A stretch of 53,146 bases of DNA from Patescibacteria group bacterium (lineage in GTDB: Bacteria > Patescibacteriota > Patescibacteriia > UBA10025 > JAHIVO01). Positions 394 to 48,215 of this stretch are shown here, one piece after another. Below the pieces are notes generated by a model. It was not told the origin of the DNA. It saw only the letters and a program-made list of their open reading frames with translations, and searched no databases. Each line of letters begins with the position of its first letter. Within the stretch, counting starts at the first letter, position 1. The position numbers and the translations under genes are program-made. The stretch is from positions 1 to 53,146 of the forward strand of contig JAZDEZ010000016.1 in assembly GCA_043808365.1 (NCBI GenBank), written 5' to 3'.

Positions 394-466
394 CGGGGAT
401 TGGCCTAATTGGTAAGGCGCACGCTTCGGGTGCGTGAGATTCCGGGTTCAAGTCCCGGATCCCCGA
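394..466 (+). tRNA. tRNA-Pro(CGG)
   Basis: Acceptor stem CGGGGAT/ATCCCCG, anticodon arm CACGC-TT CGG GT-GCGTG, T-arm CCGGG TTCAAGT CCCGG; CCA not encoded. Confidence 0.95.
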
Positions 467-502
467 CAAAGATCGAGTCCTATTATTTAACAATTATTTC
501 CA

Positions 503-800
503 GGGTTTCCGCCAGAGGCGGACCACGTTGAATGACGTGGCGAGTCCCACCACCCCGATTCTACCTTCAAAATCTATTCCGGGTTTGCCGCTCCACTATT
601 ATTCTCAAATGAAAGCGGCATCCCGCCTTCATGGCGGGACAAGTCCCACATCCCCGATTTAAAAATCAAATTTCTAAAGTGGGACTCGAAGGACGCGAAC
701 AGGTGAGCGTCCAGGCCGAGTGAAACGAGGGAGTCCCGGCCTGCCCTGAGCGAAGCCACCGAGTGAAATCGAGGTGGCGAAGCCGAAGGGATCCCCGACA
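503..800 (+). pseudogene. Three relic tRNA-Pro-like 3' ends interrupted by palindromic inserts
   Basis: GGGTT[508-540]CGAGTCCCACCACCCCGA; CAAGTCCCACATCCCCGA (640-657); GAGTCCCGG[740-790]ATCCCCGACA. The intact 3' end is AAGTCCCGGATCCCCGACA. Confidence 0.7.
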
Positions 801-1036
801 GAGAGCGTACCCTGTCGGCAGAACAATTATCGGCATGCAAGTGCGGAGCAGCATGCAGTTGCTCCCCAGATGCTTTCCGACCATCATAAAACCAAAAATC
901 TAAAACTGGGAAAGGAGTACTATTGTACCTTCTTAAACATCCTCACAGCCCTCCATCGCTCAAATAGGTTATCTGAAGACATTACGATATATTCTTCAAT
1001 TAACTAAACCTATTTTTTAGGAGCAGTGGAAAGATA

Positions 1037-1252
1037 ATGATTGATACACTCAGAAAACCTTTAGGTGCATTACTGACCAAAAAGGGCGACGGGGGCGTTG
1101 GAGAAACAAAAGTCATAGTTTTTCCAGACGGCGGAACGCCGATAAAAGCGACCTTGATCGGGCGCAACCACGAAAAAATGTTTTTAAGAGTGCCCGGGCA
1201 AGACAATATTGTTTCCATGTTGCCAGGCGTACCAGCCGAGCTAGCTCGATAA
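1037..1252 (+). CDS. Small hypothetical protein (71 aa)
   Basis: AGGAG upstream, hairpin in the leader (~962-1015), own terminator at 1272-1306. Confidence 0.5.
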   Translation: MIDTLRKPLGALLTKKGDGGVGETKVIVFPDGGTPIKATLIGRNHEKMFLRVPGQDNIVSMLPGVPAELAR

Positions 1253-1271
1253 CGAAGTACAAAAAAATAAA

Positions 1272-1306
1272 GCCGCCTCAAGCATAATACTCGAGGCGGT
1301 ATTTTT
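1272..1306 (+). terminator. Intrinsic terminator
   Basis: GCCGCCTC...GAGGCGGT stem followed by ATTTTT. Confidence 0.6.
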
Positions 1307-1367
1307 ATTAAAAAAAGACCCAGGGTAATTGACTCCCTGGGTATCAGACAAAAAAGCAATTTCTTGA

Positions 1368-2726
1368 CTACGCTTCCGGTGATATGTTTGACGGAAGCGC
1401 TTCACTCACATCAAGACCGAAGCGCTTAATCAAAATCCGCTGTGCGTTTTCAAGTTTACTGGCAAAATCGAAACATTCGTCCAGTTGGCCAGCGCTGACC
1501 ATTTCACTCAGCGGTTTGCCAGATGGTTCAAAAACAGCCGCCCACAGCACGTCACGGAACGGAGTCTTGGTATCCATCGCCACAAAAGCGCAGCCCTGCA
1601 CGAACTTATACACGTCGTCGTTGGCAAAACCCAGCTTGCCGATCATGGATTTGACGTTTTCTGAGGCCCAGCAGCCTAACGTACGGCCGATATTCTCGGC
1701 CATGCGCTTGGTATTGACCTCAAGGTTTTCCACGACCCAGGTCATCTTATCGAGCATATAATCGAGCAGGATAGTGGCATCCGGCAAGCAGATCCGCTCC
1801 ACGCTGGAATGGCAGATGTCACGCTCGTCCCACGTGCGGATGAGCTCCTGCCCCATCACGGCATAGCCGCGGAGAGCGATCGCCATGCCACACAGCCGCT
1901 CCAGTAAAATCGTGTTACGTTTATGCGGCATTGCCGACGACCCTTTTTGGCCGGGCTTGCGCGGTTCACGGTATTCGCCGCACGCCGTCATGGCATGAAG
2001 CCGCATGTCAGTGGCAAACTTTTCGAGCATTCCGCCGATCGTACTGATAACCGACATGAAATTCGCTATGTTGTCACGCAACGTGATCTGGCCGTTCGCC
2101 TGCCTGGTTTCCAGGCCGAGAATCGACACGACTTCAGTTTCCAGATCAGGAGATATGTTCAGCCAGTTCCCCATGGCACCGGAGAATTTGACCCGCCGGA
2201 CGCGCTTCACCGCATTTTGGAGAAGCTCTCGGGCCGAGATGACGGCGTCAAGGAAAACGCAGTACGTGTGGACGAGGACATCCGGTTCGCCGTCCTGCCC
2301 ATGGGTCAAGGCCATTTTGTATATCAGATAGTACTGACCGGCTTTGCGGCGCAGGATCGATTCAAGACCTTCCAAATCTTTATCAAGCAACGCGCCGACA
2401 TCCTTGAGAATCAGTCCGAGGGCTGGCTCTTCGGTATCGTAGGAAGTCATGTCCTCATGGAGGAAATGCTGATACGACGGCTCGATCTGGGCAGTGACGG
2501 ACATCAGGAAAGCCAGCAAGTCGTGTTCGATCTCCTTGTCAATTCGATTAATTTCATCCGCGTCGATTGTGATGTCCTCCTGAAACCGGTCAATCACATC
2601 AGGTTTGTAAAAGCCCAAATTAACTTTCGCCATGATAGCAGCTCGTTCAACGGTATACCATCGCCTGAATTTTGCCTCGTCTGTCCACAGGCAAGCTATG
2701 ACATCACGTGAATAACGTTTCAACAT
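1368..2726 (-). CDS. purB: Adenylosuccinate lyase
   Basis: Fumarate-lyase signature GSSAMPHKRN, plus THGQ, ERDICHSSVER and N-terminal RYSR; AAGGAG SD. Confidence 0.93.
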   Translation of the reverse strand: MLKRYSRDVIACLWTDEAKFRRWYTVERAAIMAKVNLGFYKPDVIDRFQEDITIDADEINRIDKEIEHDLLAFLMSVTAQIEPSYQHFLHEDMTSYDTEEPALGLILKDVGALLDKDLEGLESILRRKAGQYYLIYKMALTHGQDGEPDVLVHTYCVFLDAVISARELLQNAVKRVRRVKFSGAMGNWLNISPDLETEVVSILGLETRQANGQITLRDNIANFMSVISTIGGMLEKFATDMRLHAMTACGEYREPRKPGQKGSSAMPHKRNTILLERLCGMAIALRGYAVMGQELIRTWDERDICHSSVERICLPDATILLDYMLDKMTWVVENLEVNTKRMAENIGRTLGCWASENVKSMIGKLGFANDDVYKFVQGCAFVAMDTKTPFRDVLWAAVFEPSGKPLSEMVSAGQLDECFDFASKLENAQRILIKRFGLDVSEALPSNISPEA

Positions 2727-2823
2727 GTTTCTACTCCTTCTAATCTAAATTATGTTTCAAGGTTCTATTTACAAATTACACCACTTTATCATACAAAATC
2801 CACCTATGTCAACAATAAAAAAA

Positions 2824-2851
2824 GACCTCCGAGGCATATGCCAGGGAGGTC
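2824..2851 (-). terminator. Intrinsic terminator after guaB and the purA remnant
   Basis: GACCTCC/GGAGGTC stem with a T-run on the minus strand. Confidence 0.6.
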
Positions 2852-2876
2852 AAATAAAACGAGACAATGTACGATG

Positions 2877-3016
2877 TTATAGATCCAGACGGAAAATCTT
2901 TCCGTCCGTCTCGGCTGAGGTAGAGAGACTTACGCGTATCCCAGCAGACGTGATCTGGCAGAATTCGTCCCCAATTGGCAGCCGACGACTATCTGATTCT
3001 TGCTATTACTGGCCAT
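2877..3016 (-). pseudogene. Internally deleted adenylosuccinate synthetase (purA) remnant
   Basis: ATG follows GAGGT. Reads MASNSKNQIVVGCQ, then after a 1-nt shift GDE (cf. PurA VVGxQWGDEGKG), fused to ...SLSTSAETDGKIFRLDL*. Lies between guaB and purB. Confidence 0.55.
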
Positions 3017-3019
3017 CGT

Positions 3020-6526: not shown

Positions 6527-6587
6527 AGACTAAGTATAGGCCAAATCAAACAGGTTGATAAGAAATAAAAGCATCTTTTATAAATGG

Positions 6588-6740
6588 CTAATTTCTTCAG
6601 CCAGAGGCTGATCCGCCTATGGCGGAAATTGCTAATTCCTAATTTCTAATGAATATCTCATTCCCGAATGTCCAATTGACCATTGAATCATTGGTTATTG
6701 ATACGTTATTTGTAATTTTGGATTTGATATTTTGGATTTG
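6588..6740. repeat. 7-nt-periodic AT-rich palindromic element with an embedded CAGCCAGAGGCTGA/TCCGCC..GGCGGA doublet
   Basis: AATTTCT/AATTCCT-type units, then ATTG..-type inverse units; homologous to 23086, 32924, 33508 and 51616. Confidence 0.7.
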
Positions 6741-6779
6741 TTTCGTGCTTCGAAATACGGATGTCGGATCAGGGGTTGT

Positions 6780-6945: not shown

Positions 6946-6971
6946 ATTCTTATTTTATCAGAAAAAAATAA

Positions 6972-8054: not shown

Positions 8055-8394
8055 TGGCTGCGAGACCTGCCCCGCCCTACTTTAATATATTTAATTAATT
8101 GTGGCGGGGGAACCAGGATTAACGGATTCAGCCCGCCCCGCCTGCTTCGCGCATGCGCGATCCTCTTCTATTCTCCGAGGCTTGGAATCGAACCAAGATT
8201 GCATGATTCAGAGTCATGCGTCCTACCGTTAGACGACCTCGGAGAGCAGCAGAGGAATTGGTTGTTTGATATTAGTTATAATTAAGGGCGGCGAAGCGGG
8301 CCGGGGAGTCCGTCGTCCTACCATTCCCGCCCAAAGGGTGGGTCCGCCTCTGGCGGAAGACCTGCCCTGAGCGAAGTCGAAGGGCGATCTCGCA
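8055..8394 (-). pseudogene. Full-length tRNA-Gln(CTG) relic interrupted four times; the intact tRNA lies inside one insert
   Basis: Removing 8070-8109, 8132-8306, 8326-8357 and 8361-8384 gives TGCGAGA TC GTCT AATGGT AGGAC G ACGGA CTCTGAA TCCGT TAAT CCTGG TTC-----CAGG TCTCGCA G CCA. Confidence 0.85.
8173..8243 (-). tRNA. tRNA-Gln(CTG), intact
   Basis: Acceptor TCCGAGG/CCTCGGA, anticodon arm CATGA-CT CTG AA-TCATG, T-arm CTTGG TTCGATT CCAAG. Confidence 0.95.
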
Positions 8395-8430: not shown

Positions 8431-8593
8431 TGTATGATTCAGCCTGCCCCGTCAATTTCGAACGAAGTGAGAAATTATACGGGGAGTCATGCGTCCCCGC
8501 CTCTCCGGCGGGTCGCCGATGAGGCGACTACAATTCTTCAGTCCGCCTCTGGCGGAAGACTTACCCTGAGCGAAGTCGAAGGGCGATCTCGCA
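8431..8593 (-). pseudogene. Second tRNA-Gln relic (5' two-thirds) with four palindromic inserts
   Basis: Removing 8443-8484, 8496-8527, 8536-8556 and 8560-8583 gives TGCGAGATCGTCTAATTGTAGGACGCATGACTCTGAATCATACA. Confidence 0.8.
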
Positions 8594-12023: not shown

Positions 12024-14576
12024 CTACATATTCCTGGTCCCAGTCGCCACGCCCTGCGATGGTGTCGGCTCGCCCAACCGTGACCGTTCCATGATCTCGG
12101 ATTCTACACTGGTACGGTCACGACCGTACTTTACCTGTGACAATTCGACAATCTGACTGCCTAATGCAGGATCGCCGGGAGTCGGCGGGTAGGTCATCAT
12201 GTTGAAAGGCTTTGAGGCAGTGTTGTCGATCAGCAACTTCACGTTTGCTGTATACATTTCTACATTGATAACGTCATACTCATTAAATACAGGCTCAAAC
12301 TCCTTGGCCAGCGTTTCCGCGTCTTCAACGCCGGAGCGGAACGCGATAATAGTGCCGGCATTGCCGAAAACAGCATCGCGAATTTTAGTATCATTGTTCT
12401 CGCGGACTAACTGGCTGATATATTGGTGGGCCATAGTCAAATCCAGCCGGTATTTCCGGGCTTCGGACAAGATTGTCGCAATCGAATCAGTGACAAAGTT
12501 CTGGAACTCGTCGATATAGAGGTAGAAATCATTGCGCTGGTCTTCTGGGACGGAGACGCGTTTCATCGCGGCCATCTGGAGCTTTGAAACGATAATGAGC
12601 CCGAGCAGGTTGGAGTTCACTTCACCGGTCGTGCCCTTGGACAGGTTGACCAGCAGGATTTTTTTCTTGTTCATGATATCGTCAAAACTGAAACCCGACC
12701 GCGGTTGGCCGATGATGTTGCGCATCATGGCATTTTCCACGAACCGGCCGACTTTGGAAATCAGGTACCCGAGCATCTCTGACTTATGGAAATCGGACGT
12801 CTTGGCCATTTCCTTTTCCCAGAACGCGCGCACCACCGGATCCTTTACTTTACTTAACTTATATTTCTGGAATGCCAGGTCAGTGAACATGCGCGGAATT
12901 TCCACGATGGTACCCGGATCTTGTTCGTCTTCCATCAGGGTCAGCATGACATTGCGCATATTGTGCTCGAACATCGGGCCGATCATTTCTGGAGGGAACA
13001 GCTTATAAAAAATGGCGATCATTTCCTGCACGGCAAAATCTTTTTCCTCAGGTGTCCGCGCCTCCAGCATGTTCAGGCCGACCGGACGCTCCATGTCACC
13101 CGGGTTGAAAATAATGACGTCATCCGCCCTCTCTTTTGGGATGTGGGGCAAGACGGCGTTGATCAAATCCCCGTGCGGATCCACCACGCCGACGCCTTCA
13201 CCATTCACAATATCCTGAATGATCATATTGGAAAGCAGGACCGATTTTCCGGTGCCTGATTTACCGATTGCATACACATGCCGTCGGCGGTCGCCTTTTT
13301 TAATGTAAATTGGAACGTCAACGCCACGGTATGCATTGTGCCCCAACAGTAAGCCTTCTTTCGGCACGTTCATCGGCGCGGCCGCCTTGCGCGCCTGCAG
13401 CCACCGGATGTTCGGCGTCTCCGTTTCTGGCAATGGAAAATGGAAAAGGCTGGCCATTTCTTCCGTATTCAACACGCAATGATATTTATTATTATAATGC
13501 CGATAAATGAAATCATAAATGATCTTATCCTGGCGCCACGGGCCTTTCCGCTGGAAACCATTCCCGTATTCATATAATGTGTATTGGCTGAATGAATCTG
13601 TCACATTCGTCATATATGCCTTGGCACGCTCAGCGGACCGCGCTGAAACGACAACCCGGATGTTGACGTCCATGCCGGCTTTTGAAGTTTTCTCCTCAAT
13701 GCTTTTGGCAATCTCCTCTTCACGCGGCGACAATTGGCGCATCGGCTGGCCGTCAAGAGGTTTTTTCTTCGGGAAAAAAGTCCGGAACAGCTCAAAAATG
13801 AACCCATACGCGCCGCGCCGCCCCACGGCTTCCTTGACCGTTTTGCCTTGGTGCATCTCGCGGGCCACCCGAGCTCCCCAGTTATGCCAGTCGGCTTTGG
13901 CCGAACGCACGATATACTGGATGGCGATCCCCTCGTCCGGCTCAACTTTTGACAGGACGTTAGTCAAAGAATTCAACGGATCAATATCCAGCTGACGGAA
14001 TGTCCGGATGGGAAATATGTATGGTTTTTTGAAAACCAGCGATGTCGCTAAAACACTGCTTTGCGGACGGAACAGGTTATAATCGCCCATTTCCTCGATC
14101 TGGGCCTGCGGGTACTGGGCATGGATATGCTGTTCCATGTAGGCTTGGAAATATTTCGGCACAACCACATAAAATGAAATCAAGCCTTTGTCCGCCACGA
14201 TCTCCAAGGAAAAATGGTCAGACCGTCCGCCGACCATCGCTCCCAGCCCGCGCTGGGCCCGCATGCCGCCCAAGACGGAAAACCATGCTTCCGCCGACGC
14301 CAGCAATTCCGCTACCGGCCGGACGCCTTCTTTTTCAGTGGCCTTGAGTGAAGATTCCTTTGGGACCGTTATCAGCAGGATAACCTTTTTCAATGCCTCA
14401 GGCACCTGTTTGCCCTTCCGCATCCGTATCACCAACAGGGTTAATGCGCCGCTCACCACCAAAACGACTGACACCACGACTAAAATAATCGGGAAACTTG
14501 GTTTCCCGACAATGCTGGACCAAACACCGGTTGACCCGCTAGTTGCCGCCACGGTTGTCGCGAGGGCGATGATCAT
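12024..14576 (-). CDS. TraG/VirD4 (type IV coupling protein)-like ATPase with N-terminal TM
   Basis: RRRHVYAIGKSGTGKS (Walker A), VDPHGD, LYIDEFQNF (Walker B), SEARKY, HQYISQL, VFGN. Confidence 0.9.
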   Translation of the reverse strand: MIIALATTVAATSGSTGVWSSIVGKPSFPIILVVVSVVLVVSGALTLLVIRMRKGKQVPEALKKVILLITVPKESSLKATEKEGVRPVAELLASAEAWFSVLGGMRAQRGLGAMVGGRSDHFSLEIVADKGLISFYVVVPKYFQAYMEQHIHAQYPQAQIEEMGDYNLFRPQSSVLATSLVFKKPYIFPIRTFRQLDIDPLNSLTNVLSKVEPDEGIAIQYIVRSAKADWHNWGARVAREMHQGKTVKEAVGRRGAYGFIFELFRTFFPKKKPLDGQPMRQLSPREEEIAKSIEEKTSKAGMDVNIRVVVSARSAERAKAYMTNVTDSFSQYTLYEYGNGFQRKGPWRQDKIIYDFIYRHYNNKYHCVLNTEEMASLFHFPLPETETPNIRWLQARKAAAPMNVPKEGLLLGHNAYRGVDVPIYIKKGDRRRHVYAIGKSGTGKSVLLSNMIIQDIVNGEGVGVVDPHGDLINAVLPHIPKERADDVIIFNPGDMERPVGLNMLEARTPEEKDFAVQEMIAIFYKLFPPEMIGPMFEHNMRNVMLTLMEDEQDPGTIVEIPRMFTDLAFQKYKLSKVKDPVVRAFWEKEMAKTSDFHKSEMLGYLISKVGRFVENAMMRNIIGQPRSGFSFDDIMNKKKILLVNLSKGTTGEVNSNLLGLIIVSKLQMAAMKRVSVPEDQRNDFYLYIDEFQNFVTDSIATILSEARKYRLDLTMAHQYISQLVRENNDTKIRDAVFGNAGTIIAFRSGVEDAETLAKEFEPVFNEYDVINVEMYTANVKLLIDNTASKPFNMMTYPPTPGDPALGSQIVELSQVKYGRDRTSVESEIMERSRLGEPTPSQGVATGTRNM

Positions 14577-15771: not shown

Positions 15772-15991
15772 TTCCCTGGACAAAAAAATTATCGAAAGGA
15801 TGAGAAATACATCCGATCGATATCACACACGAAAGCGCCATAGAGTTCTACTCTCTAGGCGCTTTTTTCATTCTTAACCGATCTTGCCAAAATCCAAAAT
15901 ATGTGCTACAATATATTTATGGAATATCCGCCAAAGGCGGATCCGCCTTCGGCGGAAAATAAAACTTAAACAAAACCAAAAACAACAAAAT

Positions 15992-16936
15992 ATGGCCATC
16001 CAAGAGCTCCAGGGAAAACACATGCGATGGGTCAGTCTCACCAACGTGAGGCAGATTTCTGATCCGGAAATTTCATTCATAAAAAAGAATTTCAAGTGCC
16101 ATCCGCTTAACCTGAAAGACTGCATCATCAACGGCCAGCGGCCGAAAATCGACGTCTATGACGACTACCTGTTCCTGGTCATGCTGTTCCCGCTCTACAA
16201 CCGCCCGACCGGCGAGATCGTGTCGGCGGAAATCGATTTCTTTGTCGGCAAAGAGTACCTGGTCATGGTCCATGACGGCAAGCTTGAACCGATCGTCAGG
16301 CTTTTCAACCATTTGAAAAAAACCGGACGCGAAAAAGAACGCGATGCGTTCCTGAACCGCAACGTCATCCTGATCCTCCATGACCTCCTGAACATGCTCC
16401 TCATGCACACCTTCCCGATGCTCGACCACATCAGCCTGGATATCCACCAGACGGAAAAGCGCATTTTCCGGGGCAAGGAAAAAGAAATGGTCGGCGCCAT
16501 CCTGGCCTCGCGCCGCAACATCGTCAATTTCCGAAAATTCATGCAAGCGCATAAGAATATTTTGAAAAAATTGGAACATGCCAACCGCGACCTGAATCTG
16601 TACGAGCCTGGGAAGGCGGACGTGTATTTCAACAGCCTCATCGACCGCAGCAAGGAAATCTGGGATTCGCTCGAAAGTTTCAAGGAATCAATCGACGCGC
16701 TCTACGACACCAATGAATCGCTGATATCGTTCAACCTGAACCAGATCATGAAGATGTTCACCAGCATTTCCGTGGTCATATTCATCTTAACGCTGGTCGC
16801 CACCATCTTCTCCGTCAAATTGCCACATACGCCATTTTTACATTCAAATGGCGGATTTTGGTGGCTGGTACTTGTAGAAATTTTCGTCGCCTCAATAATT
16901 ATTTTTATCTTCAAAAAGCGCCGCTGGATGGAATAA
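15992..16936 (+). CDS. CorA-family divalent cation transporter (non-canonical signature)
   Basis: HPLNLKDC, QRPKIDVYDDY, LNQIMK and two C-terminal TMs; FSVK replaces FGMN. Confidence 0.88.
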   Translation: MAIQELQGKHMRWVSLTNVRQISDPEISFIKKNFKCHPLNLKDCIINGQRPKIDVYDDYLFLVMLFPLYNRPTGEIVSAEIDFFVGKEYLVMVHDGKLEPIVRLFNHLKKTGREKERDAFLNRNVILILHDLLNMLLMHTFPMLDHISLDIHQTEKRIFRGKEKEMVGAILASRRNIVNFRKFMQAHKNILKKLEHANRDLNLYEPGKADVYFNSLIDRSKEIWDSLESFKESIDALYDTNESLISFNLNQIMKMFTSISVVIFILTLVATIFSVKLPHTPFLHSNGGFWWLVLVEIFVASIIIFIFKKRRWME

Positions 16937-23085: not shown

Positions 23086-23190
23086 TAATTTTTAATTCCT
23101 AATTTTTACTCAATGTCTAATCACGAATGTCCAATTAGTCATTGATGCATTGGGATATGATTAGAAATTAGGAATTCGTCATTAGGAATT
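23086..23190. repeat. 7-nt-periodic palindromic element
   Basis: TAATTTTTAATTCCTAATTTT...AATGTCCAATTAGTCATTG...ATTAGAAATTAGGAATT. Confidence 0.7.
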
Positions 23191-24589: not shown

Positions 24590-24886
24590 TTATGACGTTT
24601 TGAATCCGATTTCGCCTGTCGAAGGCGCCTGGGCTGCCTCGATCTTGCCGAACTTATCCTCGTATTTCTTGATGTTCTCCTGGAGCGCCAGGTAAATGCG
24701 TTTCATGTGCCCAGGGGAAGTGATGACGCGGCTGGTCACGATGCCGGCCCGCTGGAACGGGTACACATTCATGAAATCCACGGTAAATTCTTCCTTGGTG
24801 TGCGACACGCCCATGGCGTTGGCATACACGCCTTTCATGGTCGCGTCATCCATTTTGATGTTGATTTGCTGGTTCTGGTCTGTCAT
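24590..24886 (-). CDS. DUF3467-like protein, copy 1
   Basis: GVYAN...HTKEEFTVDF...SRVITSPGHMKR...YEDKFG; near-identical to 29623-29925. Confidence 0.85.
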   Translation of the reverse strand: MTDQNQQINIKMDDATMKGVYANAMGVSHTKEEFTVDFMNVYPFQRAGIVTSRVITSPGHMKRIYLALQENIKKYEDKFGKIEAAQAPSTGEIGFKTS

Positions 24887-29622: not shown

Positions 29623-29925
29623 TTATGATACTTTAAATCCAATCCCATCGGACGATGGGGCCTGAGCCGCTTCGATCATACCAAACTTGTCCTCGTACTT
29701 CTTGAGGTTGTCCTGGAGCGCTAGATAAATGCGCTTCATGTGGCCCGGGCTGGTAATGACTCGGCTGGTGACGATACCGGCTTTTTGAAACGGGTAGACA
29801 TTCATGAAATCAACGGTAAACTCCTCCTTTGTATGCGATACGCCCATGGCGTTTGCATAGACGCCTTTCATGGTTGCGTCATCCATTTTGATATTGATCT
29901 GCTGCTCATTCGATGGTCCATTCAT
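29623..29925 (-). CDS. DUF3467-like protein, copy 2
   Basis: Near-identical protein to 24590-24886, with mostly synonymous differences. Confidence 0.85.
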   Translation of the reverse strand: MNGPSNEQQINIKMDDATMKGVYANAMGVSHTKEEFTVDFMNVYPFQKAGIVTSRVITSPGHMKRIYLALQDNLKKYEDKFGMIEAAQAPSSDGIGFKVS

Positions 29926-32923: not shown

Positions 32924-33105
32924 AAATTTCTAATGACGAATTCCTTCGGCCAGAGGCTGATCCGCCTCCGGCGGAAATTTCTAATCAATGTCTAATTCTT
33001 GAATGCCCAATTGGTCATTAAATCATTACGGATTTGCCTGCCCGCCTCTGGAGGGACCCGGAATCTCTGTTTGACCGAGACCCTGAATCAAGTTCAGGGT
33101 GACAA
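32924..33105. repeat. 7-nt-periodic element plus REP-like palindromes
   Basis: AATTTCTAATGACGAATT[CGGCCAGAGGCTGATCCGCCTCCGGCGGA]AATTTCTAATCAATGTCTAATT; ACCCTGAATCAAGTTCAGGGT. Confidence 0.7.
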
Positions 33106-33494: not shown

Positions 33495-33742
33495 GAAGTG
33501 AGAGAATAAATATCCAATTGACTAATATCCAATATCCAATGAATGCCTAATTCCCAAATTTCCAATTGGTCCTTTTGTCATTGGGATTTAATTGGAAATT
33601 GGTAATTGGTTATTGGTAATTTATCCAATTACCTTGCTTATTCACTCACTTCGGCTGGTCAGTACAGAGCCTGACCAACCTCGACCCTTCGGCGTAGCTC
33701 AGGGTCGACACTGAGTCCCGTTATCCGGGACCGAAGTGTCGA
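33495..33742. repeat. 7-nt-periodic palindrome enclosed by a larger inverted repeat, plus nested REP-like units
   Basis: GAAGTGAGAGAATAA...TTATTCACTCACTTC enclosing AATATCC units and inverse ATTGGTA units. Confidence 0.7.
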
Positions 33743-38814: not shown

Positions 38815-39867
38815 TCAGGAAACTATCGTCGGTTCTTTGGGAGACGCCTCTCCGTTAGTGGCGGCTGACGACGGCTTACTGAAAAGCATTGCCCCAATTT
38901 TAATCCCGAAATGAGACAAAAATAACAGCCCAATCACCACTTTGAGGAAATCAACGGACCGGAAAATCAACGAAAACGCCACCCCGCTCTCCGGGGAATA
39001 GCCGATCATGGAAAAAATGAGCGCCTCGCCCGTTTCCGTGCTCCCCAGCGATCCGGGGATTGGCAGGAGAAAGGTTATGATGGTCAGGGTGGAAACGAGT
39101 ATGACGTCCAGTAACGTGGCCGGCAGTCCCAGAAAAATCATGATCATCCACATCGCCGATAAGGTTAATAAGCCGCCAAGCACCGACAAACCAAGCGCTT
39201 TATACAGCGTTTTGCGATCATGCTGGAAAAAACGGATGACGACCAGCTCAAATTCGCCGATCTTGTCCATGACCTTGGCGATAAACGACAGCCGATGCAG
39301 ACGGAAAAACCTGATAATACTGCCGAAAAAATCCCGCGACCGCAGGGTCCGATAATAAAAATAAACGATCAGAAAGACGAAAAGCAAACTGATAAACAGC
39401 AGTCCGGCGATAAGTTTCCATGACAGGCTGAATTTAATCAGGATGTAAAAAATGGAAAACAGCAGAAAAGGCAGGGCGTAGCTGAAATCCATCACCTTAT
39501 CGATGATGACCGAGGCCAGGCCTTCGGAAAACGGCACCTGGGCGTCTTTTTTCAGGACCATGGCCCTGATCGCCTCACCGCCGACGTTCGGCGAGGGTGT
39601 AATATAGTCAACCGAGAAACCGACGATCTTAGCCGGGAATATCTGCCCCAGCCTGACCGGGTGGCCCTGGCTCCGCAGAATCATGCACCAGCGGTATTGG
39701 GAGATGAAAAACGACAGCGCGTACAGGATCAGAATCACGAACCATTTGGCGAACGAAAAATCGATAATCGTCTGCCAAATATTCGGCAGACCGACTTTCA
39801 GCATCACTCCGACGAACAGAGCGGCGCCGATTACGGCTGAAATAACAAAAAAAATGATTTTTTTCAT
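38815..39867 (-). CDS. Lysylphosphatidylglycerol synthase TM / flippase-like (UPF0104) protein
   Basis: YRW, ITPSPNVGGEAIR, IIDK, PIPGSLGSTE, LIFR motifs. Confidence 0.85.
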   Translation of the reverse strand: MKKIIFFVISAVIGAALFVGVMLKVGLPNIWQTIIDFSFAKWFVILILYALSFFISQYRWCMILRSQGHPVRLGQIFPAKIVGFSVDYITPSPNVGGEAIRAMVLKKDAQVPFSEGLASVIIDKVMDFSYALPFLLFSIFYILIKFSLSWKLIAGLLFISLLFVFLIVYFYYRTLRSRDFFGSIIRFFRLHRLSFIAKVMDKIGEFELVVIRFFQHDRKTLYKALGLSVLGGLLTLSAMWMIMIFLGLPATLLDVILVSTLTIITFLLPIPGSLGSTETGEALIFSMIGYSPESGVAFSLIFRSVDFLKVVIGLLFLSHFGIKIGAMLFSKPSSAATNGEASPKEPTIVS

Positions 39868-39948: not shown

Positions 39949-39990
39949 GTTCCTGGTTCCAAGTCCAGAGTTCCAAGTTCGCAGTTCAAA
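39949..39990. repeat. GTTC-NNN heptamer array (6 units)
   Basis: gttcctg gttccaa gtccaga gttccaa gttcgca gttcaaa. Confidence 0.7.
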
Positions 39991-41917: not shown

Positions 41918-42056
41918 ATGGACATAGTATAGCGCGGATTATAACAATAATCTATTTTATGAATACCGAATTATTGGTTGCTGGCAGTTGCGCCCATGTC
42001 ACGCGCGACGTAGCAATTGTTGGTCATATCATAGTGGTCGCATCACACGGGTTCTT

Positions 42057-42175
42057 GCTCATTGTTCATGGTTCCCCGTTCTGCGTTCAAAGTCTTGAGT
42101 CCCATGTTCAAGGTTCCCAGTTCTACGTTCATAGTTCTGAATCCAGAGTTCCTGGTTCCAAGTCCAAAGTTCTAA
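42057..42175. repeat. GTTC-NNN heptamer array (17 units)
   Basis: Strict 7-nt phase with a conserved G-T-T/C-C core and variable last 3 nt. Confidence 0.8.
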
Positions 42176-42181
42176 GTTGAG

Positions 42182-44080
42182 TTACTCCACCACCACTCCG
42201 CTGTTCCCCAGCAGGCCCCAATTCCACTCAAAACTGGAGCGAGTGAAATATTTTTCACCGTATAACGGATCCATGGTGATAATCTTGGTCGGATTTTCCG
42301 CCGGTCCGATAAAGCCGATGGCCACGCGCGCGTGCTCGCCGCTGACTGCGACAACATTGCCGCCTTGGGGCGTTTTCCAATCAATCCGTTTTCCGGATCC
42401 CGCCGTTCCCCACACTACAACTGGGTTGCCTTTTTTAATCTCTGCGGTCAGGTCAGCTACCTTCCACCCGGAAAAAGCCCGAGCCATACGGTATGCTTTC
42501 GCCGCAATGGCGATCGGATCCCAATATACGCCGTAACCGGTAGACGGCTGATGGCCGTCAATGTCGCCGACAAAAGCCACGTTCGGGTTGCCCCAGACGC
42601 CATTGCTTTTCAGCGTCGGGTCAAAGCCGACAATGTTGATTAACGGCGCTTCGCCGATATTGGCCCCCTTATATTTCAAGGCCATGGACAGTGAGGCGAA
42701 TTCACAGCTTAACTTATGGTCCTGCCGGTCGAAAGCTACAGTCAATTTTGTAATTGACTGCTCCGTTGAAAAACTGAATGAATAATCCTTTTCCATCTCG
42801 AATCCAGCAGACGTGCCACTGACATCTTTTGAAATTAAAACACTATAGGAAAAATTAAATGCCAATGGAGAGGTTGGCTTGAACAGCATTGTATTGCCAT
42901 CCCAGGAAAAATCGCCGGCCACGGCCGGTGATATGGAGAAGTGCGCTTGGGCGGAATTGCGGTCCACCGGCTGGTCGAAGGCGATCCGGACCGTACTGTC
43001 CACCCCGATACCGGCGCTCTTGTCCACCGGAATCGTCTGACTGACATCAACCGGCCCCAAAGTCGTAAACTCATAGGTCGCATCTTCCGTCAGGAATCCT
43101 CCCGACGTATTTTTTGTGCCCTTGGCCACGGTCAGGTGGTAATTCGTATCCAGCGCGTACTGGCTTGGCTTGAAAACAAAGTTAGCGGCGCTGATCGCGG
43201 TCCATGTACCTGATGCTGACGGACTGATGCTGATGTTTTCCTTGAATGAAACAAAATCCATCGGCTGGGTAAACGCGATGTCAATCGGTTCCTGCAAACC
43301 CACGGCTGTCCCGGCCGGCGCCACTTTTTCCACGCCCGGCGCTTCTTTGACCGTCCAAGTCTCTTTCTTCACCAACTGCGGTTCGCTCTGGTAGGCGATG
43401 TCTTGGGTATTAAAATTATACCGTATGGTCTTTTGGTATACGGATAGCGCGTAAGAAGTCCCCTGGGCCAGCTGTTCGGTCGGTTTCAACGCTGTCGTTT
43501 TACCATCGGCGCCGGTCTGGATAACGAATTTTATGGCAGGGGAAAACTCATAAGAAAATTCTACCCCCGGCTGGCGGGGGGCATCATAAGCAAAAACCCA
43601 GCTGGAGTCAGGCGATAATTCGTCGGAAGCTTTCGGCGATACGGACACTAAGGATGGAATGGCGGCAGTGGTAAAACTGAACATGGCGGCCCGCGGCTGG
43701 CGGTAAGTCGGCCACGCGCTGCGGATGCCGCTGATTTTTATCTGGTATGTCGTATCCGGCAGCCAGGTCACTTCCGGCTGGAATGTTATGGTCCTGGCTA
43801 AATGATTTTGCGTAACAAACCGTGAATACGCCACCTCGCCAAAAGTTTCTGGTGCCATAGTTACTGAAATTTCCCTCGATATTGGCACGCTGAAATCAAT
43901 CTGAATCGCCGCATCGAGTGGCACGCGATTATCCCGCAGCTGGACATTCAGGGTCGGCTGGGGTACATAGCTCCACAAGACAGTGCCGACGGCCAATGCC
44001 AAAAAAACGCCGGCACAGATGATCCACGCGACGCGATGCGATGTAGGGATGTTTTTGTTATTTTTATTTTTGAAGAACAT
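42182..44080 (-). CDS. Surface protein: TM, repeated Ig-like (SbsA/Big_5-type) domains and C-terminal C39-like peptidase
   Basis: Repeated 'I.I.F.QP.D' Ig motifs; LSCEFAS (Cys), EHARVAIG (His), MDP (Asp). Start uncertain (44080 or 44125). Confidence 0.85.
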   Translation of the reverse strand: MFFKNKNNKNIPTSHRVAWIICAGVFLALAVGTVLWSYVPQPTLNVQLRDNRVPLDAAIQIDFSVPISREISVTMAPETFGEVAYSRFVTQNHLARTITFQPEVTWLPDTTYQIKISGIRSAWPTYRQPRAAMFSFTTAAIPSLVSVSPKASDELSPDSSWVFAYDAPRQPGVEFSYEFSPAIKFVIQTGADGKTTALKPTEQLAQGTSYALSVYQKTIRYNFNTQDIAYQSEPQLVKKETWTVKEAPGVEKVAPAGTAVGLQEPIDIAFTQPMDFVSFKENISISPSASGTWTAISAANFVFKPSQYALDTNYHLTVAKGTKNTSGGFLTEDATYEFTTLGPVDVSQTIPVDKSAGIGVDSTVRIAFDQPVDRNSAQAHFSISPAVAGDFSWDGNTMLFKPTSPLAFNFSYSVLISKDVSGTSAGFEMEKDYSFSFSTEQSITKLTVAFDRQDHKLSCEFASLSMALKYKGANIGEAPLINIVGFDPTLKSNGVWGNPNVAFVGDIDGHQPSTGYGVYWDPIAIAAKAYRMARAFSGWKVADLTAEIKKGNPVVVWGTAGSGKRIDWKTPQGGNVVAVSGEHARVAIGFIGPAENPTKIITMDPLYGEKYFTRSSFEWNWGLLGNSGVVVE

Positions 44081-44158
44081 AGTAAGTTCAGCTCCTATTA
44101 TAACAAAAAAAATGGAAATAGTCAACCCGAAACTACCTCCCGCTTTTTTTAAACCTTA

Positions 44159-44380: not shown

Positions 44381-44556
44381 ACTATTAGCCGTTAATGTTA
44401 TATGGAATAAGTATATACTGAATCACGCCGTCACGGCAATATACTACCCGCCACTTTCGTCCCAAGCCAAGTCGAGGGCAGGCGGATGGTTTTTACTGGT
44501 AATAAAAAGCTGCCCTCGTGAAAGAAGGCAGCGATGACATGAAACATGAACAATGT

Positions 44557-45819
44557 TTATTTTTTCTGAAATTGGGGTAAGTCCCGTCCGCCCCATTCTA
44601 TAATGACGCTGCACCAGGAAAAACCACCGCCGTAAGCCGCCAACATCACCCTCTTGCTCGGGACTATTATACCAAGTTCACAAGCTTCATAAACTGACAG
44701 CGGGATGCTGGCCGAGGTAGGATTGCCGAAGCGTTCGATGTTATTGTAGCAAATGATTATATGCTTAGCTTCGGTCTGGTCTTTCATTCCTCTGGGTAAA
44801 ATCCACTCTTTAACTATTAGTTCCAGAGCCGTATAGTCACGGGAAACCATAGCTACGGCCAGGCCTTCATTGGCCTTGACGATGCGCTTGATGATTGCCT
44901 CCGTCATGCGCAGGTTAGCTTGATGTAAAATCAACACCTCGATGTCAAACCAGCTCAAGCCAGCATTTACCAGCGCTCCGGGCATGATTTCATTTGCCAC
45001 CCTCGGCACGATATTTTCATAAACTGCCCGGCCATCCATCATCATGAGATGCGCATCGACTAACGGATCAAGATGTTCTGGTTTAATGGGGACGGCGGAA
45101 CCACCGGCCCGATTGATAATCATTCGCTCGAATTCACCGCCTGGACCTCCATCAACACCGGAAAAAAAGGCCCGCGGACCGAACCAAGATTTCTCCTCTA
45201 CAGTCGCCTCTACGGCAAAAGATCCTCCGGCATCACCGAGAATGACAAATGGCGAGCGGCGGTTCCGGCTAATGACCCGGAACATCAGATCCGCACCAAC
45301 TACCCAGCCGCGCTCCGCTTTACCACTCCTGATCAGGGAATCAGCGTCATCCAGCGCCACCAAAAAGCTGGTGCAGGCCTGGGTAATATCTCTCCCTTTA
45401 AAATTCCGCATGATAGGTTTCCCGGAAAGTTTTGAAAAAACCGGAATTGCCAGCTTGCGGTGCGCCGCCACATTAGTCGGCGGGGTGGTGAAATAATCCG
45501 GACTGACTGTGGCCATATACAGGAAATCTGGAATTTCCAAACCATCGCCATAAGCATCGGTCCATGCTTCAGCCGCCGCTCTGGCTGCATAATCACTGGT
45601 GCATTCATGGTCTTCCGCGATGCGGCGCTCCCGAACTCCGACGCGCGAAAGTATCCATTCGTCACTCGTTTCATACTCAGCCATCTGTTCAGGTGTCATC
45701 TTGACGCCGCTTTTTAGCAGATTATCCCGTCGCTCCAGCAAAATTCTGGCGAGGTCTTCGTTAGTTAAAACTCTTCTGGGCAGGGCAATCCCGATTCCGG
45801 CAATTTTTACGCCTTTCAT
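44557..45819 (-). CDS. FabH/KAS III-like ketoacyl synthase
   Basis: TSDEWI..RVGVRERR, QACTSF (Cys), GDAGG, MDGRAVY, HQANLR (His), FGNPTSASIPL (Asn), GGGFSW. Confidence 0.88.
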   Translation of the reverse strand: MKGVKIAGIGIALPRRVLTNEDLARILLERRDNLLKSGVKMTPEQMAEYETSDEWILSRVGVRERRIAEDHECTSDYAARAAAEAWTDAYGDGLEIPDFLYMATVSPDYFTTPPTNVAAHRKLAIPVFSKLSGKPIMRNFKGRDITQACTSFLVALDDADSLIRSGKAERGWVVGADLMFRVISRNRRSPFVILGDAGGSFAVEATVEEKSWFGPRAFFSGVDGGPGGEFERMIINRAGGSAVPIKPEHLDPLVDAHLMMMDGRAVYENIVPRVANEIMPGALVNAGLSWFDIEVLILHQANLRMTEAIIKRIVKANEGLAVAMVSRDYTALELIVKEWILPRGMKDQTEAKHIIICYNNIERFGNPTSASIPLSVYEACELGIIVPSKRVMLAAYGGGFSWCSVIIEWGGRDLPQFQKK

Positions 45820-45939
45820 TTCACTCTCCTTTATTGTGAATGTTCAATTTTATCTCCTTTAATTTATTATCTCATCCTACGACAAAAAGCCCTGCAGCGT
45901 CAAGCTAAAGTCAGTTACTATAAAATCCGGGATAATTTT

Positions 45940-46278
45940 TTACTTTTTCGTAATGGCGCTCGTGAACCAGGAAAAAACCCAGAGGATAACGCCACCGATC
46001 AGCGCAGTGATAAAACCATCGACGGTGAATCCCTTAACGACCGTTGACACCAACAGAATCAATCCAGCGTTGATGACGAACGTGAACAAGCCAAGGGTCA
46101 GGATGTTGATCGGTAATGTAAGGATGACGATCACTGGCTTAATGATCGCATTCAAAATGCCCAGAACCAAAGCCACAATTAAGGCCGTGTAAAAACTGCT
46201 GGCATGGAACCCCGGCACGAGATAGGCCACCGCCATCAGCGCCAAGGCGTTTAATAACCAACGTAGAAGTATGAACAT
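45940..46278 (-). CDS. YvlD-type 4-TM 'phage holin family' protein
   Basis: LNAIIKPVIVILTLPINILTLGLFTFVINA. Confidence 0.9.
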   Translation of the reverse strand: MFILLRWLLNALALMAVAYLVPGFHASSFYTALIVALVLGILNAIIKPVIVILTLPINILTLGLFTFVINAGLILLVSTVVKGFTVDGFITALIGGVILWVFSWFTSAITKK

Positions 46279-46287
46279 AATTATTTA

Positions 46288-46477
46288 TAGCGCCTACCGG
46301 ATTCCCCCGCTATTAAGCGGGGTCCGCCCTCATTTGAATTAATATCGGTGGGCGGAGAACCCGAGTTTCTTGGATGACCTGCCCGCCGCAGGCCGTAAAT
46401 AGCGCGTGTGGGATTCTCCGCCAGAGGCGGACCCCGCCCTACCTTGATTTACAATATTTTTTTGTGGCGGGGGAACC
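46288..46477 (-). pseudogene. Two relic tRNA-Glu-like 3' ends, both interrupted in the T-loop
   Basis: On the + strand: TAGCGCCTACCGGATTC[46305-46356]GAACCCGAGTTTCTTGGATGA and TAGCGCGTGTGGGATTC[46417-46472]GAACC. Confidence 0.8.
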
Positions 46478-46484
46478 GATGAAA

Positions 46485-46557
46485 TAGTCCCATGGGGATT
46501 CGAACCCCAGTTTCATCCATGAGAGGGACGTGTCCTAACCAACTAGACGATGGGACC
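46485..46557 (-). tRNA. tRNA-Glu(CTC)
   Basis: Acceptor GGTCCCA/TGGGACT, anticodon arm CGTCC-CT CTC AT-GGATG, T-arm TGGGG TTCGAAT CCCCA. Confidence 0.95.
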
Positions 46558-46711
46558 ACATAACATCCCTCCTATTGTATACGAGCCAGGGGAAAAAAAT
46601 CAAGAAACAAACAGCCAACTCCCAATATATGCCGTGCATGACAGGCATTCTTCGACCAACATGTCGGTCGAATGCTGCCCTGCAAGTAAAGCCGGGGTTG
46701 GCGGTTTATGT

Positions 46712-46891
46712 TTAGTTCTTCCGATAATTCTCGAAAAAAATTGCCGCTAGGAAGGAAACCATGGCCATCTGGAGATAGAATGTCGATGAGATAAGAACGA
46801 TCGTATCGCGCACTTCATTGAAAAAACCGAAGACGCCACACATCAGGCCAAAAATGGCAAATGCAATCGGGATATATTTGTGTTTTATCAT
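46712..46891 (-). CDS. 59-aa 2-TM protein (below the ORF-track cutoff)
   Basis: AAAGGGGGTGA SD; MIKHKYIPIAFAIFGLMCGVFGFF...FYLQMAMVSFLAAIFFENYRKN*. Confidence 0.6.
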   Translation of the reverse strand: MIKHKYIPIAFAIFGLMCGVFGFFNEVRDTIVLISSTFYLQMAMVSFLAAIFFENYRKN

Positions 46892-46951
46892 GATTTCACC
46901 CCCTTTCTACACGCTATCCAAGCCTGGATAGCTAAAAAATCACCGTATCTA

Positions 46952-47956
46952 TTATATCTTTTTACCGATTGACTGGCAAATGCGGACCAGGGTATTTGAA
47001 TATCCCCATTCATTGTCATACCAGGCGACGACTTTCAGCAAATCCCCGTCAACAACATTGGTCAGCGATAAATCAACGATGGAAGCATGGGAATTGCCGA
47101 TAAAATCAGATGATACTAGCTCCTCTTCCGTCACATCCAGGACACCCTGATACCTTGGCTCATCTTTTGCCGCTTTGAACGCCGCATTTACTGCATCAAT
47201 TGTCACCGGCTTGCCAACCACCATCGTGATATCAGAGAGAGAGACAATGGGTGTCGGGACGCGGATTGATATGCCGTCAAACTTACCTTTGACCTCTGGC
47301 ACCGTTTCTCCCGTCGCAATCGCCGCGCCTGTTGAGGTGGGGACGATATTCGCCGCGGCTGCGCGGGCCCGGCGGAGATCTTTATGCGGCCCATCCACCA
47401 AATTCTGGTCGGCCGTATATGAATGGATCGTGGTCATCATCGCTTTTTTGATCCCAAATGAGCGATTCACTATTTCAATGACCGGAGCGATGCAGTTAGT
47501 GGTACAGGATGCGTTAGAAATTATTTTTTGGCCCTTAAGTTTCGCGTCATTGACGCCGAGGACGAACGTATCGACACCGCCGCCTTTGGCTGGCGCGGAA
47601 ATCACCACGCGCTGCGCGCCGGCGGCCAGGTGCGACGCCGCCTGTTCCTGTTTGACGAACCGGCCGGTCGACTCTATCACCACGTCAATCTTTAAATCCT
47701 TCCAGGGCAATTTATTCGGCTCCTTCTCCGCCAGGACAGGATACTCTTTCCCGTCGATCACCAATGATTTGCCGTTTGATTTCACCAGCTTTTCGTATTT
47801 GCCGTACACGGTGTCGTACTGCAGCAGATGCGCCAGCGTGGCCGTGTCCGTCAAATCATTGATCGCCGCCACCTCGACGTCAGGCTTGGTCAGGGCGATT
47901 TTGAATGCGGCCCGGCCGATCCGGCCGAATCCGTTAATGGCTAATTTTGTTGTCAT
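46952..47956 (-). CDS. gap: Type I glyceraldehyde-3-phosphate dehydrogenase
   Basis: INGFGRIGR, SNASCTTNC, RRARAAA, WYDNEWGY. Confidence 0.98.
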   Translation of the reverse strand: MTTKLAINGFGRIGRAAFKIALTKPDVEVAAINDLTDTATLAHLLQYDTVYGKYEKLVKSNGKSLVIDGKEYPVLAEKEPNKLPWKDLKIDVVIESTGRFVKQEQAASHLAAGAQRVVISAPAKGGGVDTFVLGVNDAKLKGQKIISNASCTTNCIAPVIEIVNRSFGIKKAMMTTIHSYTADQNLVDGPHKDLRRARAAAANIVPTSTGAAIATGETVPEVKGKFDGISIRVPTPIVSLSDITMVVGKPVTIDAVNAAFKAAKDEPRYQGVLDVTEEELVSSDFIGNSHASIVDLSLTNVVDGDLLKVVAWYDNEWGYSNTLVRICQSIGKKI

Positions 47957-48080
47957 AGTTTTCGTCTATATAAGTCTAATAAATCATTCATAAACGCACA
48001 CGCCCCGTTACTCCGACCCCGTATCCACAATTTCGCTCCGCAAAACGGGGCAGGCAAGTCCGGGGGAGGAGTCATACGGG

Positions 48081-48215
48081 GCCAAAACCATTGATCGCTA
48101 ATTTAATTGGCATAGATATACATTTAAATTGTTTAATAATTCGTTCCCAGTTGCGCCGAGCGTAAACAAGGTGTTATCCAGGGCCGAATCCGTTAATGGC
48201 AAGTCTGATCGGCAT
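48081..48215 (-). pseudogene. Two relic gap 5' ends (11 codons each)
   Basis: 48183-48215 = MPIRLAINGFG; 48081-48113 = MPIKLAINGFG; the live gene starts MTTKLAINGFG. Confidence 0.9.

Follow-up and report, generated by a model that had tools for sequence, protein, structure and literature searches.

Relics of gene ends and palindromic hairpin modules beside intact tRNA and protein genes in a small patescibacterial genome

Introduction

How an essential gene comes to stand intact beside diverged copies of its own end, many of them bordered or split by short palindromes, is the question raised by a 53-kb contig of a Patescibacteria group bacterium (assembly GCA_043808365.1, contig JAZDEZ010000016.1). 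The whole contig (C16; 53,146 nucleotides) was analysed and is referred to here as the window. It belongs to a 1.03-Mb genome (G000; 88% complete, 24 contigs, 49% G+C, 44 tRNA genes), the relatives of which within the class have genome sizes of 0.7-1.6 Mb, and it carries the housekeeping genes for DnaK, DnaJ, GrpE, HrcA and DnaX as well as gap, fba and tpi. An initial annotation of the window had pointed to four loci with such copies, here termed relics, namely tRNA-Pro, tRNA-Gln, tRNA-Glu and gap, and all four were found as claimed. The explanation that we tentatively favour, with slightly less than even confidence, is that modules bounded by stems insert into loops as their targets, and that some of them would bring along a replacement gene end or a whole tRNA. 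Literature searches returned no description of tRNA-end relics together with hairpin insertions in small-genome bacteria, which does not prove that the pattern is unpublished.

Results and discussion

Relics at the four loci of the window

The tRNA-Pro gene is followed by three diverged same-strand copies of its own segment from the T-loop to the 3' end (Table 1). The first two lie directly 3' of a hairpin, and the third is interrupted at 740-790 by a CCCTGAGCGAAG..CGAAGCCGAAGGG module, which ends in GAAGGG and holds a nested hairpin. Upstream of tRNA-Gln, the relic is split by CCTGCCCCGT..ACGGGG at 8443-8484 beside the anticodon and by CCCGCCTCTCCGGCGGG at 8496-8512 in the D-region. Downstream of tRNA-Glu, both modules of the CCGCCCT type are followed by GAACC, and the stretch 46411-46478, together with the DNA down to ~46395, makes up a diverged copy of this tRNA that comprises its T-arm, its 3' end and the trailer.

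Table 1. Features of the four loci, with positions in the window unless a contig is named.
Feature	Position	Strand	Remarks
Intact tRNA-Pro(CGG)	394-467	+	ARAGORN; Rfam 64.7 bits
Two adjacent hairpins, TCCGCCAGAGGCGGA (508-522) and CCACGTTGAATGACGTGG (523-540)	508-540	.	abut tRNA-Pro relic 1
tRNA-Pro 3'-end relic 1 (3' half of T-loop to 3' end)	542-561	+	nearest to tRNA-Pro(GGG) 3' end, 15/17
Hairpin TCCCGCCTTCATGGCGGGA	621-639	.	abuts tRNA-Pro relic 2
tRNA-Pro 3'-end relic 2	641-660	+	tRNA positions 56-73
tRNA-Pro 3'-end relic 3	731-800	+	17/18 match to live gene
Hairpin CCCGCCCTAC..GTGGCGGGGG, CCGCCCT family, type hpA	8071-8110	.	AACC directly after
tRNA-Gln fragment, anticodon loop to 5' half of T-loop	8111-8131	-	downstream of live gene, directly after the 8071-8110 hairpin
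Intact tRNA-Gln(CTG)	8172-8244	-	ARAGORN; Rfam
Composite module TCCGCCTCTGGCGGA + CCCTGAGCGAAGTCGAAGGG	8342-8394	.	second copy at 8541-8593, 96% identical
tRNA-Gln relic upstream of live gene	8431-8528	-	split by two hairpins
Second copy of composite hairpin module	8541-8593	.	96% identical to 8342-8394
Hairpin TCCGCCCTCATTTGAATTAATATCGGTGGGCGGA, CCGCCCT family, type hpB	46323-46356	.	GAACCC after
hpA module TCCGCCAGAGGCGGA + CCCCGCCCTAC..GTGGCGGGGG (46417-46473) in T-loop remnant GGATTC^..^GAACC	46411-46478	.	
Intact tRNA-Glu(CTC)	46484-46558	-	ARAGORN; Rfam
Intact gap, 334 aa	46952-47956	-	both GAPDH domains
Stretch of 123 nt between gap relic 1 and live start codon	47957-48079	-	nested CCCCGT..ACGGGG hairpins
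gap N-terminal relic 1 (MPIKLAINGFG)	48080-48114	-	77% to first 34 nt; most diverged of the three copies
gap N-terminal relic 2 (MPIRLAINGFG)	48182-48216	-	80% to first 34 nt; at ancestral place adjoining fba
IS200 end hairpins	C2:6892, C6:30884, C8:65039, C13:555, C14:113, C15:115130, C23:6443		

Both gap relics stop at the identical base (..GGCC). The live gene starts with MTTKLAINGFG, and relic 2 carries the allele of the same-genus genomes (MPxRLAINGFG). Gap relics are missing in three genomes of the same genus (G001, G002 and G003), where the single gap start adjoins fba at the place occupied by relic 2 in G000; therefore, ~260 nt were added in the G000 lineage. The ~35 nt upstream of each of the three gap starts are weakly alike, with 14-15 of 300 shuffles reaching the score in two pairs and no significant similarity of the third pair in the shuffle test.

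Relics across the genome and its relatives

Each tRNA gene was aligned to its own 1200-nt flanks with annotated tRNAs masked and a score of at least 26 required; some of the fragments obtained in this way may derive from neighbouring related tRNAs. Within this distance, 33 fragments in G000 lie on the same strand as their parent gene and one on the opposite strand, 24 of the 44 tRNAs being affected. The 5' parts are located upstream and the 3' parts downstream of the parent. The same scan yielded 18 same-strand versus 2 opposite fragments in G005, which represents another genus, and 17 versus 1 in G053 from another family of the same class, both of which are complete single-contig genomes. Many 3' relics begin at T-loop position 56-60 in all three genomes. 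Breakpoints cluster at the loop sites that are used by hairpin insertions, and 20 of 66 fragment ends are situated within 3 nt of the edge of a strict hairpin, compared with 8.8% of the intergenic positions near tRNAs (1854/21148) and 5.2% of positions genome-wide. The pattern pointed out at the four loci is far from confined to them, and hairpins are also enriched at the boundaries of local duplications (see below). Syntenic tRNA-Gly, tRNA-Cys and tRNA-Asp loci in eight other genomes bear relics of their own, and a few of these loci are clean.

Concatenation of strain variants during assembly of the metagenome bin is a hardly credible source of this pattern. The genome does consist of 24 contigs, and the one public read run containing 9% of the sampled words gave short low-depth contigs, one of them over 48167-48359, so that it offers no independent read support for the loci. 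However, the presence of the same architecture in the complete genomes G005 and G053 argues against an artefact, as does its occurrence in several other assemblies at orthologous and other loci. Furthermore, the relics are diverged and their flanks differ.

With respect to protein genes, 25 residues from either end of 831 long open reading frames (ORFs; 1662 termini) were compared with the adjoining intergenic DNA as defined by a crude longest-ORF map, in which 16.5% of the genome counts as intergenic. The restriction to intergenic DNA was made because, without masking of neighbouring genes, the test was swamped by tandem paralogues. Eight same-strand matches versus one opposite match were obtained at 40 bits or more, and 7 versus 0 at 50 bits or more. 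One of the eight, a C-terminal match at C1:261-917, was removed from the count since it is the template repeat of a diversity-generating retroelement (DGR). The others belong to a PEP-utilising enzyme, an AddA/UvrD-type helicase-nuclease, a DsbD-HMA protein, a P-type ATPase, gap and two familyless proteins, and a relic of GatB, found as a local direct repeat, was added separately. In two HMA-domain paralogues, the relics end at ATGCA and are followed by an identical 47-nt module.

The DGR itself (C1:261-2975) lies outside the window and encodes a 218-aa target protein with a variable C-terminus at the gene end. Its template, an asparagine-codon-rich copy, is located ~480-545 nt downstream, and its reverse transcriptase gene at C1:1761-2975; a second reverse transcriptase gene was found at C15:42772-43350. 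RNA-mediated copying was considered as a source of the relics and set aside; of the two such genes, one is part of the DGR, and neither is near relics. An interpretation of the breakpoints as palindrome centres or restriction sites (TTC^GAA, GGCC, ATGCA^T) was also set aside, the bases at the boundaries being ambiguous.

Hairpin families and their target sites

The hairpins fall into families with copy numbers far above expectation. TCCGCC-N3-GGCGGA has 32 copies in G000 versus 0 in one third-order Markov simulation, and CCCGCC-N3-5-GGCGGG has 24 versus 1. Of the hairpins with the joint pattern [TC]CCGCC..GGCGG[GA], 49 of 62 are intergenic. The CCGCCCT family comprises two types, hpA and hpB. 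The initial annotation had reported its position directly before GAACC in the T-loop for three of three copies, and a T-loop location is confirmed for 9/9 copies in G000 and for 2/2 in G009, a member of another genus. In G000, hpA is followed by (G)AACC in 6/6 copies, four of which also keep GGATTC-like bases on the other side, and hpB by GAAC in 3/3 copies; every copy of either type lies downstream of an intact tRNA, at a distance of no more than a few hundred bases. The two hpA copies of G009 reside in the T-loop of 3' relics beside tRNA-Thr and tRNA-Arg. Altogether, hpA sits 3' of GGTT(C) in 8/8 copies without duplication, and as the flank is always a T-loop, a short and a structural target are indistinguishable here. 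The exact hpA pattern is confined to G000 and G009 among 22 genomes of the order, with looser matches (79-85%) in G001, G002 and G014.

Other families use other loops. In dead copies of tRNA-Gly and tRNA-Cys from G000, G001, G002 and G005, TCCCGC..GCGGGA modules occupy the anticodon-loop site N^CAA, and many of the 23 copies of the CCGAC..GTCGG family follow CTCAG in relic D-loops. Modules also nest in other modules, as at 740-790 of the window and in the case of GCCACTT..AAGTGGC. No target duplication was seen to flank simple hairpin insertions. The idea that repeat hairpins insert without target duplication is hence borne out, and the insertions are site-selective.

The TCCGCC-N3-GGCGGA hairpin occurs in 48 of 61 class genomes sampled, with up to 74 copies each and near-zero counts for reversed-pattern controls, and is often present as a tandem pair with AAA/TCT loops. 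Its class-wide conservation suggests a function or a very successful element. One tandem pair (window 15927-15956) is located in the 5' end of the longest CorA ORF (15884-16936), the true start codon of which is probably downstream of the pair. An AT-rich repeat family (AATTTCTAATGA.., ..CAATTGGTCATT..) is present at window positions 6575-6742, 23087-23183, 32924-33022, 33517-33614 and 51615-51758, where it is joined with a double hairpin of TCAGCC..GGCTGA and TCCGCC..GGCGGA and lies between genes including dnaJ, dnaK and hsp20; it might be regulatory.

Nested tRNA genes and local duplications

A number of tRNA loci are nested, with an intact tRNA and its own leader and trailer placed between the 5' part and the 3' part of an older copy. 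At the tRNA-Lys locus of G053, the clearest case, three concentric layers are each bracketed by their own matching leader/trailer inverted repeat (aaccgccccg/cggggcggtt, ataatcacttcg/cgaagtgattat and gctgccccca/tgggggcagc), and the relics differ from the live gene in the D-arm. Since copying of a resident gene in place cannot make new flanks, a new unit entered the old gene, at least at this locus. In G005, a complete tRNA-Gly is located within a TCCCG..GCGGGA module that splits the old anticodon. At tRNA-Asp of G010 and G013, the relic retains the old trailer tctgttttg, still used in G002, and the live gene has a new leader/trailer pair. The same nesting of a tRNA in an old copy is seen at tRNA-Gln(TTG) of G000. 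Exact leader/trailer brackets of at least 7 nt surround 9 of the 44 tRNAs in G000 versus 18 of 1892 shuffled pairs. A stretch of 84 nt that follows the trailer of G000 tRNA-Asp was rejected as evidence of nesting, as it is not significantly tRNA-like, its score of 14 being reached by 608/1000 shuffles. The initial annotation had spoken of terminus replacement; the gene-end relics are indeed real, but the tRNA cases are often better described as a whole new tRNA nested in an old gene.

The reading that we favour would account for these loci as follows. Families of non-coding 15-75-nt modules with GC stems, similar to repetitive extragenic palindromes (REPs) or miniature inverted-repeat transposable elements, would spread by copying into unpaired loops formed by other DNA hairpins, with no duplication of the target and with a preference for the D-, anticodon- and T-loops of tRNA-gene DNA, and would also nest in each other. 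Larger modules would enter the same loop sites in the same orientation and carry a replacement, which for tRNAs would be a complete tRNA enclosed in a leader/trailer stem of its own and for protein genes a fresh copy of the gene end plus some flank. The gene would remain intact, and its old end or ends would be left beside it as relics, which would gather further hairpins because only dead copies tolerate them. The rule of same orientation would follow if the unit must be transcribed from the old promoter. Relic blocks that are identical to the live gene probably arose through gene conversion. We infer that insertion and replacement form one event, that single-stranded intermediates are involved and that an enzyme acts on them.

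Several observations weigh against this reading. No enzyme is tied to the relic modules, and the hairpins seen beside the IS200 copy and beside two RAYT-like genes are of different families from those at the relics. The complete genome G053 has no PF01797 or RAYT match, yet it exhibits the same relics and hairpin families, and 73 and 34 copies of TCCGCC-N3-GGCGGA are present in G080 and G070, respectively, again with no PF01797 match. If the old flanks resemble the new ones, which is the case at tRNA-Asp of G000, nesting and two end duplications give the same map. The GatB relic holds its hairpin inside, 10 nt ahead of the duplication joint, which is what one would expect of hairpins that enter DNA already dead, and in some cases hpA has simply inserted into a dead tRNA copy that is long or full-length, so that the hairpin may postdate the duplication. 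Protein genes are only end-duplicated and never nested, and the upstream similarity of the three gap copies is marginal. Finally, in the arrays with at least two relics (tRNA-Pro, C21:79056-79430 and gap), the relic farthest away resembles the live end most, which is explained by none of the readings considered here and is not predicted by simple serial insertion beside the gene. As to the insert-and-repair cycle put forward in the initial annotation, no live gene was ever seen to be hit and then repaired, and the GatB hairpin lies within the relic.

Part of these observations would be expected if duplication came first. Stable hairpins, for instance tRNA arms or intergenic stems, would then be the places where replication slips or switches template, which would give local tandem copies of 30-110 nt. 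Copies that include a gene end would do no harm and be kept, and hairpin elements would enter them later at their usual loop targets in an uncoupled manner. We regard this as rather unlikely; the local repeats of G000 are among the observations in its favour. Repeats within 600 nt are direct in 53 cases and inverted in one, 32 of them involve intergenic DNA, and the spacings are mostly ~80-250 nt. The predominance of direct repeats agrees with the favoured reading, too. Besides the GatB hairpin and the relics in a genome without Y1 genes, the tRNA-Glu relic, a 33-nt tandem unit with hpA in its T-loop, and the presence of hpA in a full-length dead tRNA-Val are consistent with it. In contrast, copying of the resident gene cannot produce layers whose leader/trailer pairs are unrelated, independent events reuse the same breakpoint base followed by a module of a repeat family, and perfect or near-perfect duplicates already hold one to three modules. 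A strict hairpin abuts the copy boundary in 10 of 27 non-overlapping pairs, four times the null mean of 2.5 (maximum 7 in 300 trials). The freshest duplication is a perfect 74-nt repeat around a 35-nt module (C7:124132-124314), with a parallel event at C7:89898-90072. The intergenic unit of ~74 nt that is tandemly doubled at both C7 loci follows terminator-like sites, can be folded as a long stem (TTAGCTTAGC..GCTAAGCTAA) and may represent an unannotated small RNA or a further element.

A bolder variant of the favoured reading treats the modules as self-compensating mobile units, and we consider it unlikely. A stem-bounded unit with a tRNA or a gene end plus flank would enter the loop of the resident copy and thereby destroy and replace it at once; the host would then depend on the unit, and loci would grow like Russian dolls. 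Old half-genes could serve as homology arms for entry into naive relatives by natural transformation, and plain hairpins would be empty versions of such units.

Candidate enzymes and possible routes of entry

The initial annotation inferred a trans-acting enzyme and pointed to HUH/Y1 transposases. The part of this idea that stands is the existence of such genes. G000 encodes an IS200/IS605 TnpA (C13:83-523; NF033573, 145.4 bits, cut-off 55) and three RAYT proteins (C8:22379-22963, C17:32244-32840 and C3:11284-11883; NF047646, 110.6, 103.0 and 102.4 bits, respectively, cut-off 80), and two further RAYT-like genes score below the NF047646 cut-off. However, the link from these genes to the relic hairpins is weak. 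In the 260 nt to the left and right of each Y1 gene of G000, no TCCGCC, CCGCCCT or CCCTGAGCG modules were seen. The C8 RAYT gene is flanked by CCTCAAC..GTTGAGG, which has just 2 copies genome-wide, and the RAYT-like copy on C1 by cccgactgaagtcgg-type and GCCACTTAAGTGGC hairpins; no flanking hairpin is evident around the other three RAYT-like genes. The CCGAC..GTCGG family resembles the flanks of the C1 copy, and a link may exist for that one family. The breakpoints of G053, a genome without Y1 genes, carry TCCGCC- and CCCGCC-type hairpins. Counts of TCCGCC-N3-GGCGGA and of Y1 genes are only modestly correlated, with a Spearman rho of 0.26 across 60 class genomes and 0.56 across 17 family genomes, these relatives not being independent samples. 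Y1 HUH transposases are candidates in G000 and are not required for the relics elsewhere. The end hairpin of the IS200/IS605 element (TGCCGAC..GTCGGCA plus ~25 shared bases) is located within ~130 nt of seven contig ends of G000 (Table 1), which points to a multi-copy insertion sequence (IS) that breaks the assembly.

Site-specific integration by a tyrosine recombinase encoded elsewhere would offer another route. Small or decayed elements would enter the T- or anticodon loop of tRNAs or the ends of protein genes and bring a replacement end, the displaced fragment would be an att relic, and repeated events would stack such relics. The breakpoints do fit the known crossover zones of integrases in tRNA genes, and all five relatives tested possess tyrosine recombinases (1-3 each). 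In G053, a conserved core of ~135 nt is present at 126902-127035, 329632-329815, 666582-666692, 711068-711202 and 768256-768390 (C1). Four of the five cores lie downstream of a tRNA (Leu, Glu, Glu and Gln), at a distance of ~50 nt. At tRNA-Glu(TTC), tRNA-Glu(CTC) and tRNA-Leu, the core is followed by a perfect 19-nt copy of the T-loop-to-CCA end of the tRNA itself, and at tRNA-Gln a 13-nt 3'-end fragment lies beyond it. This core was not found in G000 or G005. Integration is nevertheless a quite unlikely explanation of the pattern as a whole, because no PF00589 tyrosine recombinase match was obtained in G000 at its 88% completeness, G053 has a single recombinase, and inserts of just 9-190 nt would mean that each gene needs its own miniature element. 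The duplicated upstream flanks and the protein-gene cases with variable outer ends also fit poorly.

In a further scenario, DNA taken up from relatives would replace gene ends or whole tRNAs via one homologous anchor and one illegitimate joint, so that the resident end becomes the relic and hairpins mark the preferred joints. Uptake had been considered in the initial annotation, and two observations are in keeping with it. ComEC is present in G000 (match at C3:9821-10615 inside a 502-aa ORF), and several relics represent another allele, as with the presence of both tRNA-Cys types at one locus, the D-arm of the G053 tRNA-Lys relics, tRNA-Pro relic 1 with its likeness to tRNA-Pro(GGG), and the outlying gap relic 1. 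In addition, insertion with long target duplication is documented mostly in naturally competent species, according to PMC2853133. We consider the scenario very unlikely, however, as no donor sequence was identified, the breakpoints are site-specific rather than scattered, the allele differences could equally reflect old tandem copies with differential loss, and competence is putative. The RAYT gene at C3:11284-11883 adjoins the ComEC gene. An 850-aa protein encoded at 12024-14576 of the window has weak matches to coupling proteins of type IV secretion (VirD4/TraG/TrwB type) and might bear on DNA traffic.

Comparison with known systems

REP/RAYT systems share with G000 the short extragenic GC-stem hairpins in many copies, the RAYT genes and, for two RAYT-like genes, flanking hairpins of their own. 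In contrast, the relic hairpins of G000 differ from those flanking RAYT genes, and relics also occur without RAYT. To our knowledge, neither an insertion of REPs into tRNA-gene loops nor a tie to gene-end relics has been described. Members of the IS200/IS605 family insert 3' of a fixed short target. Together with palindrome-associated transposable elements, they resemble the system described here in that G000 has a multi-copy Y1 TnpA; the location of hpA 3' of GGTT(C) without target duplication may be a further parallel, its flank always being a T-loop. However, the G000 modules are palindromic and have no asymmetric left and right ends, and the IS200 end hairpin TGCCGAC..GTCGGCA is a different one. 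Hairpin or tRNA loops also serve as sites for IS elements that insert into REP loops and for the transposing tRNA introns and split tRNAs of archaea, and the palindromic elements of Rickettsia illustrate that palindromes are tolerated in or near essential genes. The G000 modules, by comparison, are not spliced as far as can be judged from the DNA, and an intact copy always stands beside the truncated copy that was hit.

Insertion with long target duplication was reportedly described by Nobusato et al. in 2000. As presented by Furuta et al. in 2010 (PMC2853133), the inserted DNA lies between direct repeats of 46-420 bp that correspond to a single copy in the insert-free relative, and the cargo consists of restriction-modification genes. 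The gap locus is similar in comparison with G001-G003, both repeats aligning to one copy, and the 74-nt repeat at C7:124132-124314 fits as well. Here, however, the cargo is hairpin DNA of 30-120 nt, the same base is used repeatedly, and gene ends lie within the duplicated stretches. Islands that target tRNA genes split and regenerate their target and leave the displaced fragment as a direct repeat, as outlined in PMC4383910, and targeting of the 5' end of a protein gene with restoration is exemplified by dusA in PMC4482086. A regenerated target with a displaced fragment and breakpoints in T- and anticodon loops are features that G000 has in common with such islands and prophages, whereas its inserts are gene-free and measure tens of bases to ~190, no integrase was found in G000, and whole tRNAs with new flanks are nested. 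The system differs from REP/RAYT, IS200/IS605, tRNA islands and insertion with long target duplication in insert size, in whole-tRNA nesting and in having no enzyme linked to it.

If insertion and replacement are coupled, very small elements could colonise essential genes of streamlined 1-Mb genomes without killing the host, and a hidden route of tRNA-gene turnover would exist. On the plainest reading, the tRNA loci of this class act as hot spots at which local duplications and invading hairpins accumulate, and many pseudo-fragments and spurious small ORFs are to be expected there in tRNA scans and gene calling. The TCCGCC-N3-GGCGGA hairpin found across the class calls for a functional or a mobility explanation.

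Other features of the window

Arrays with a 7-nt period (GTTCnnn, as in GTTCCTGGTTCCAAGTCCAGAGTTC) are located at 39949-39990 and 42050-42189 beside the starts of minus-strand genes, namely an LPG-synthase-like gene ending at 39867 and a 647-aa peptidase C39-like gene at 42182-44125. Two DUF3467 genes (24590-24871 and 29623-29904) lie 5 kb apart and share 82% DNA identity.

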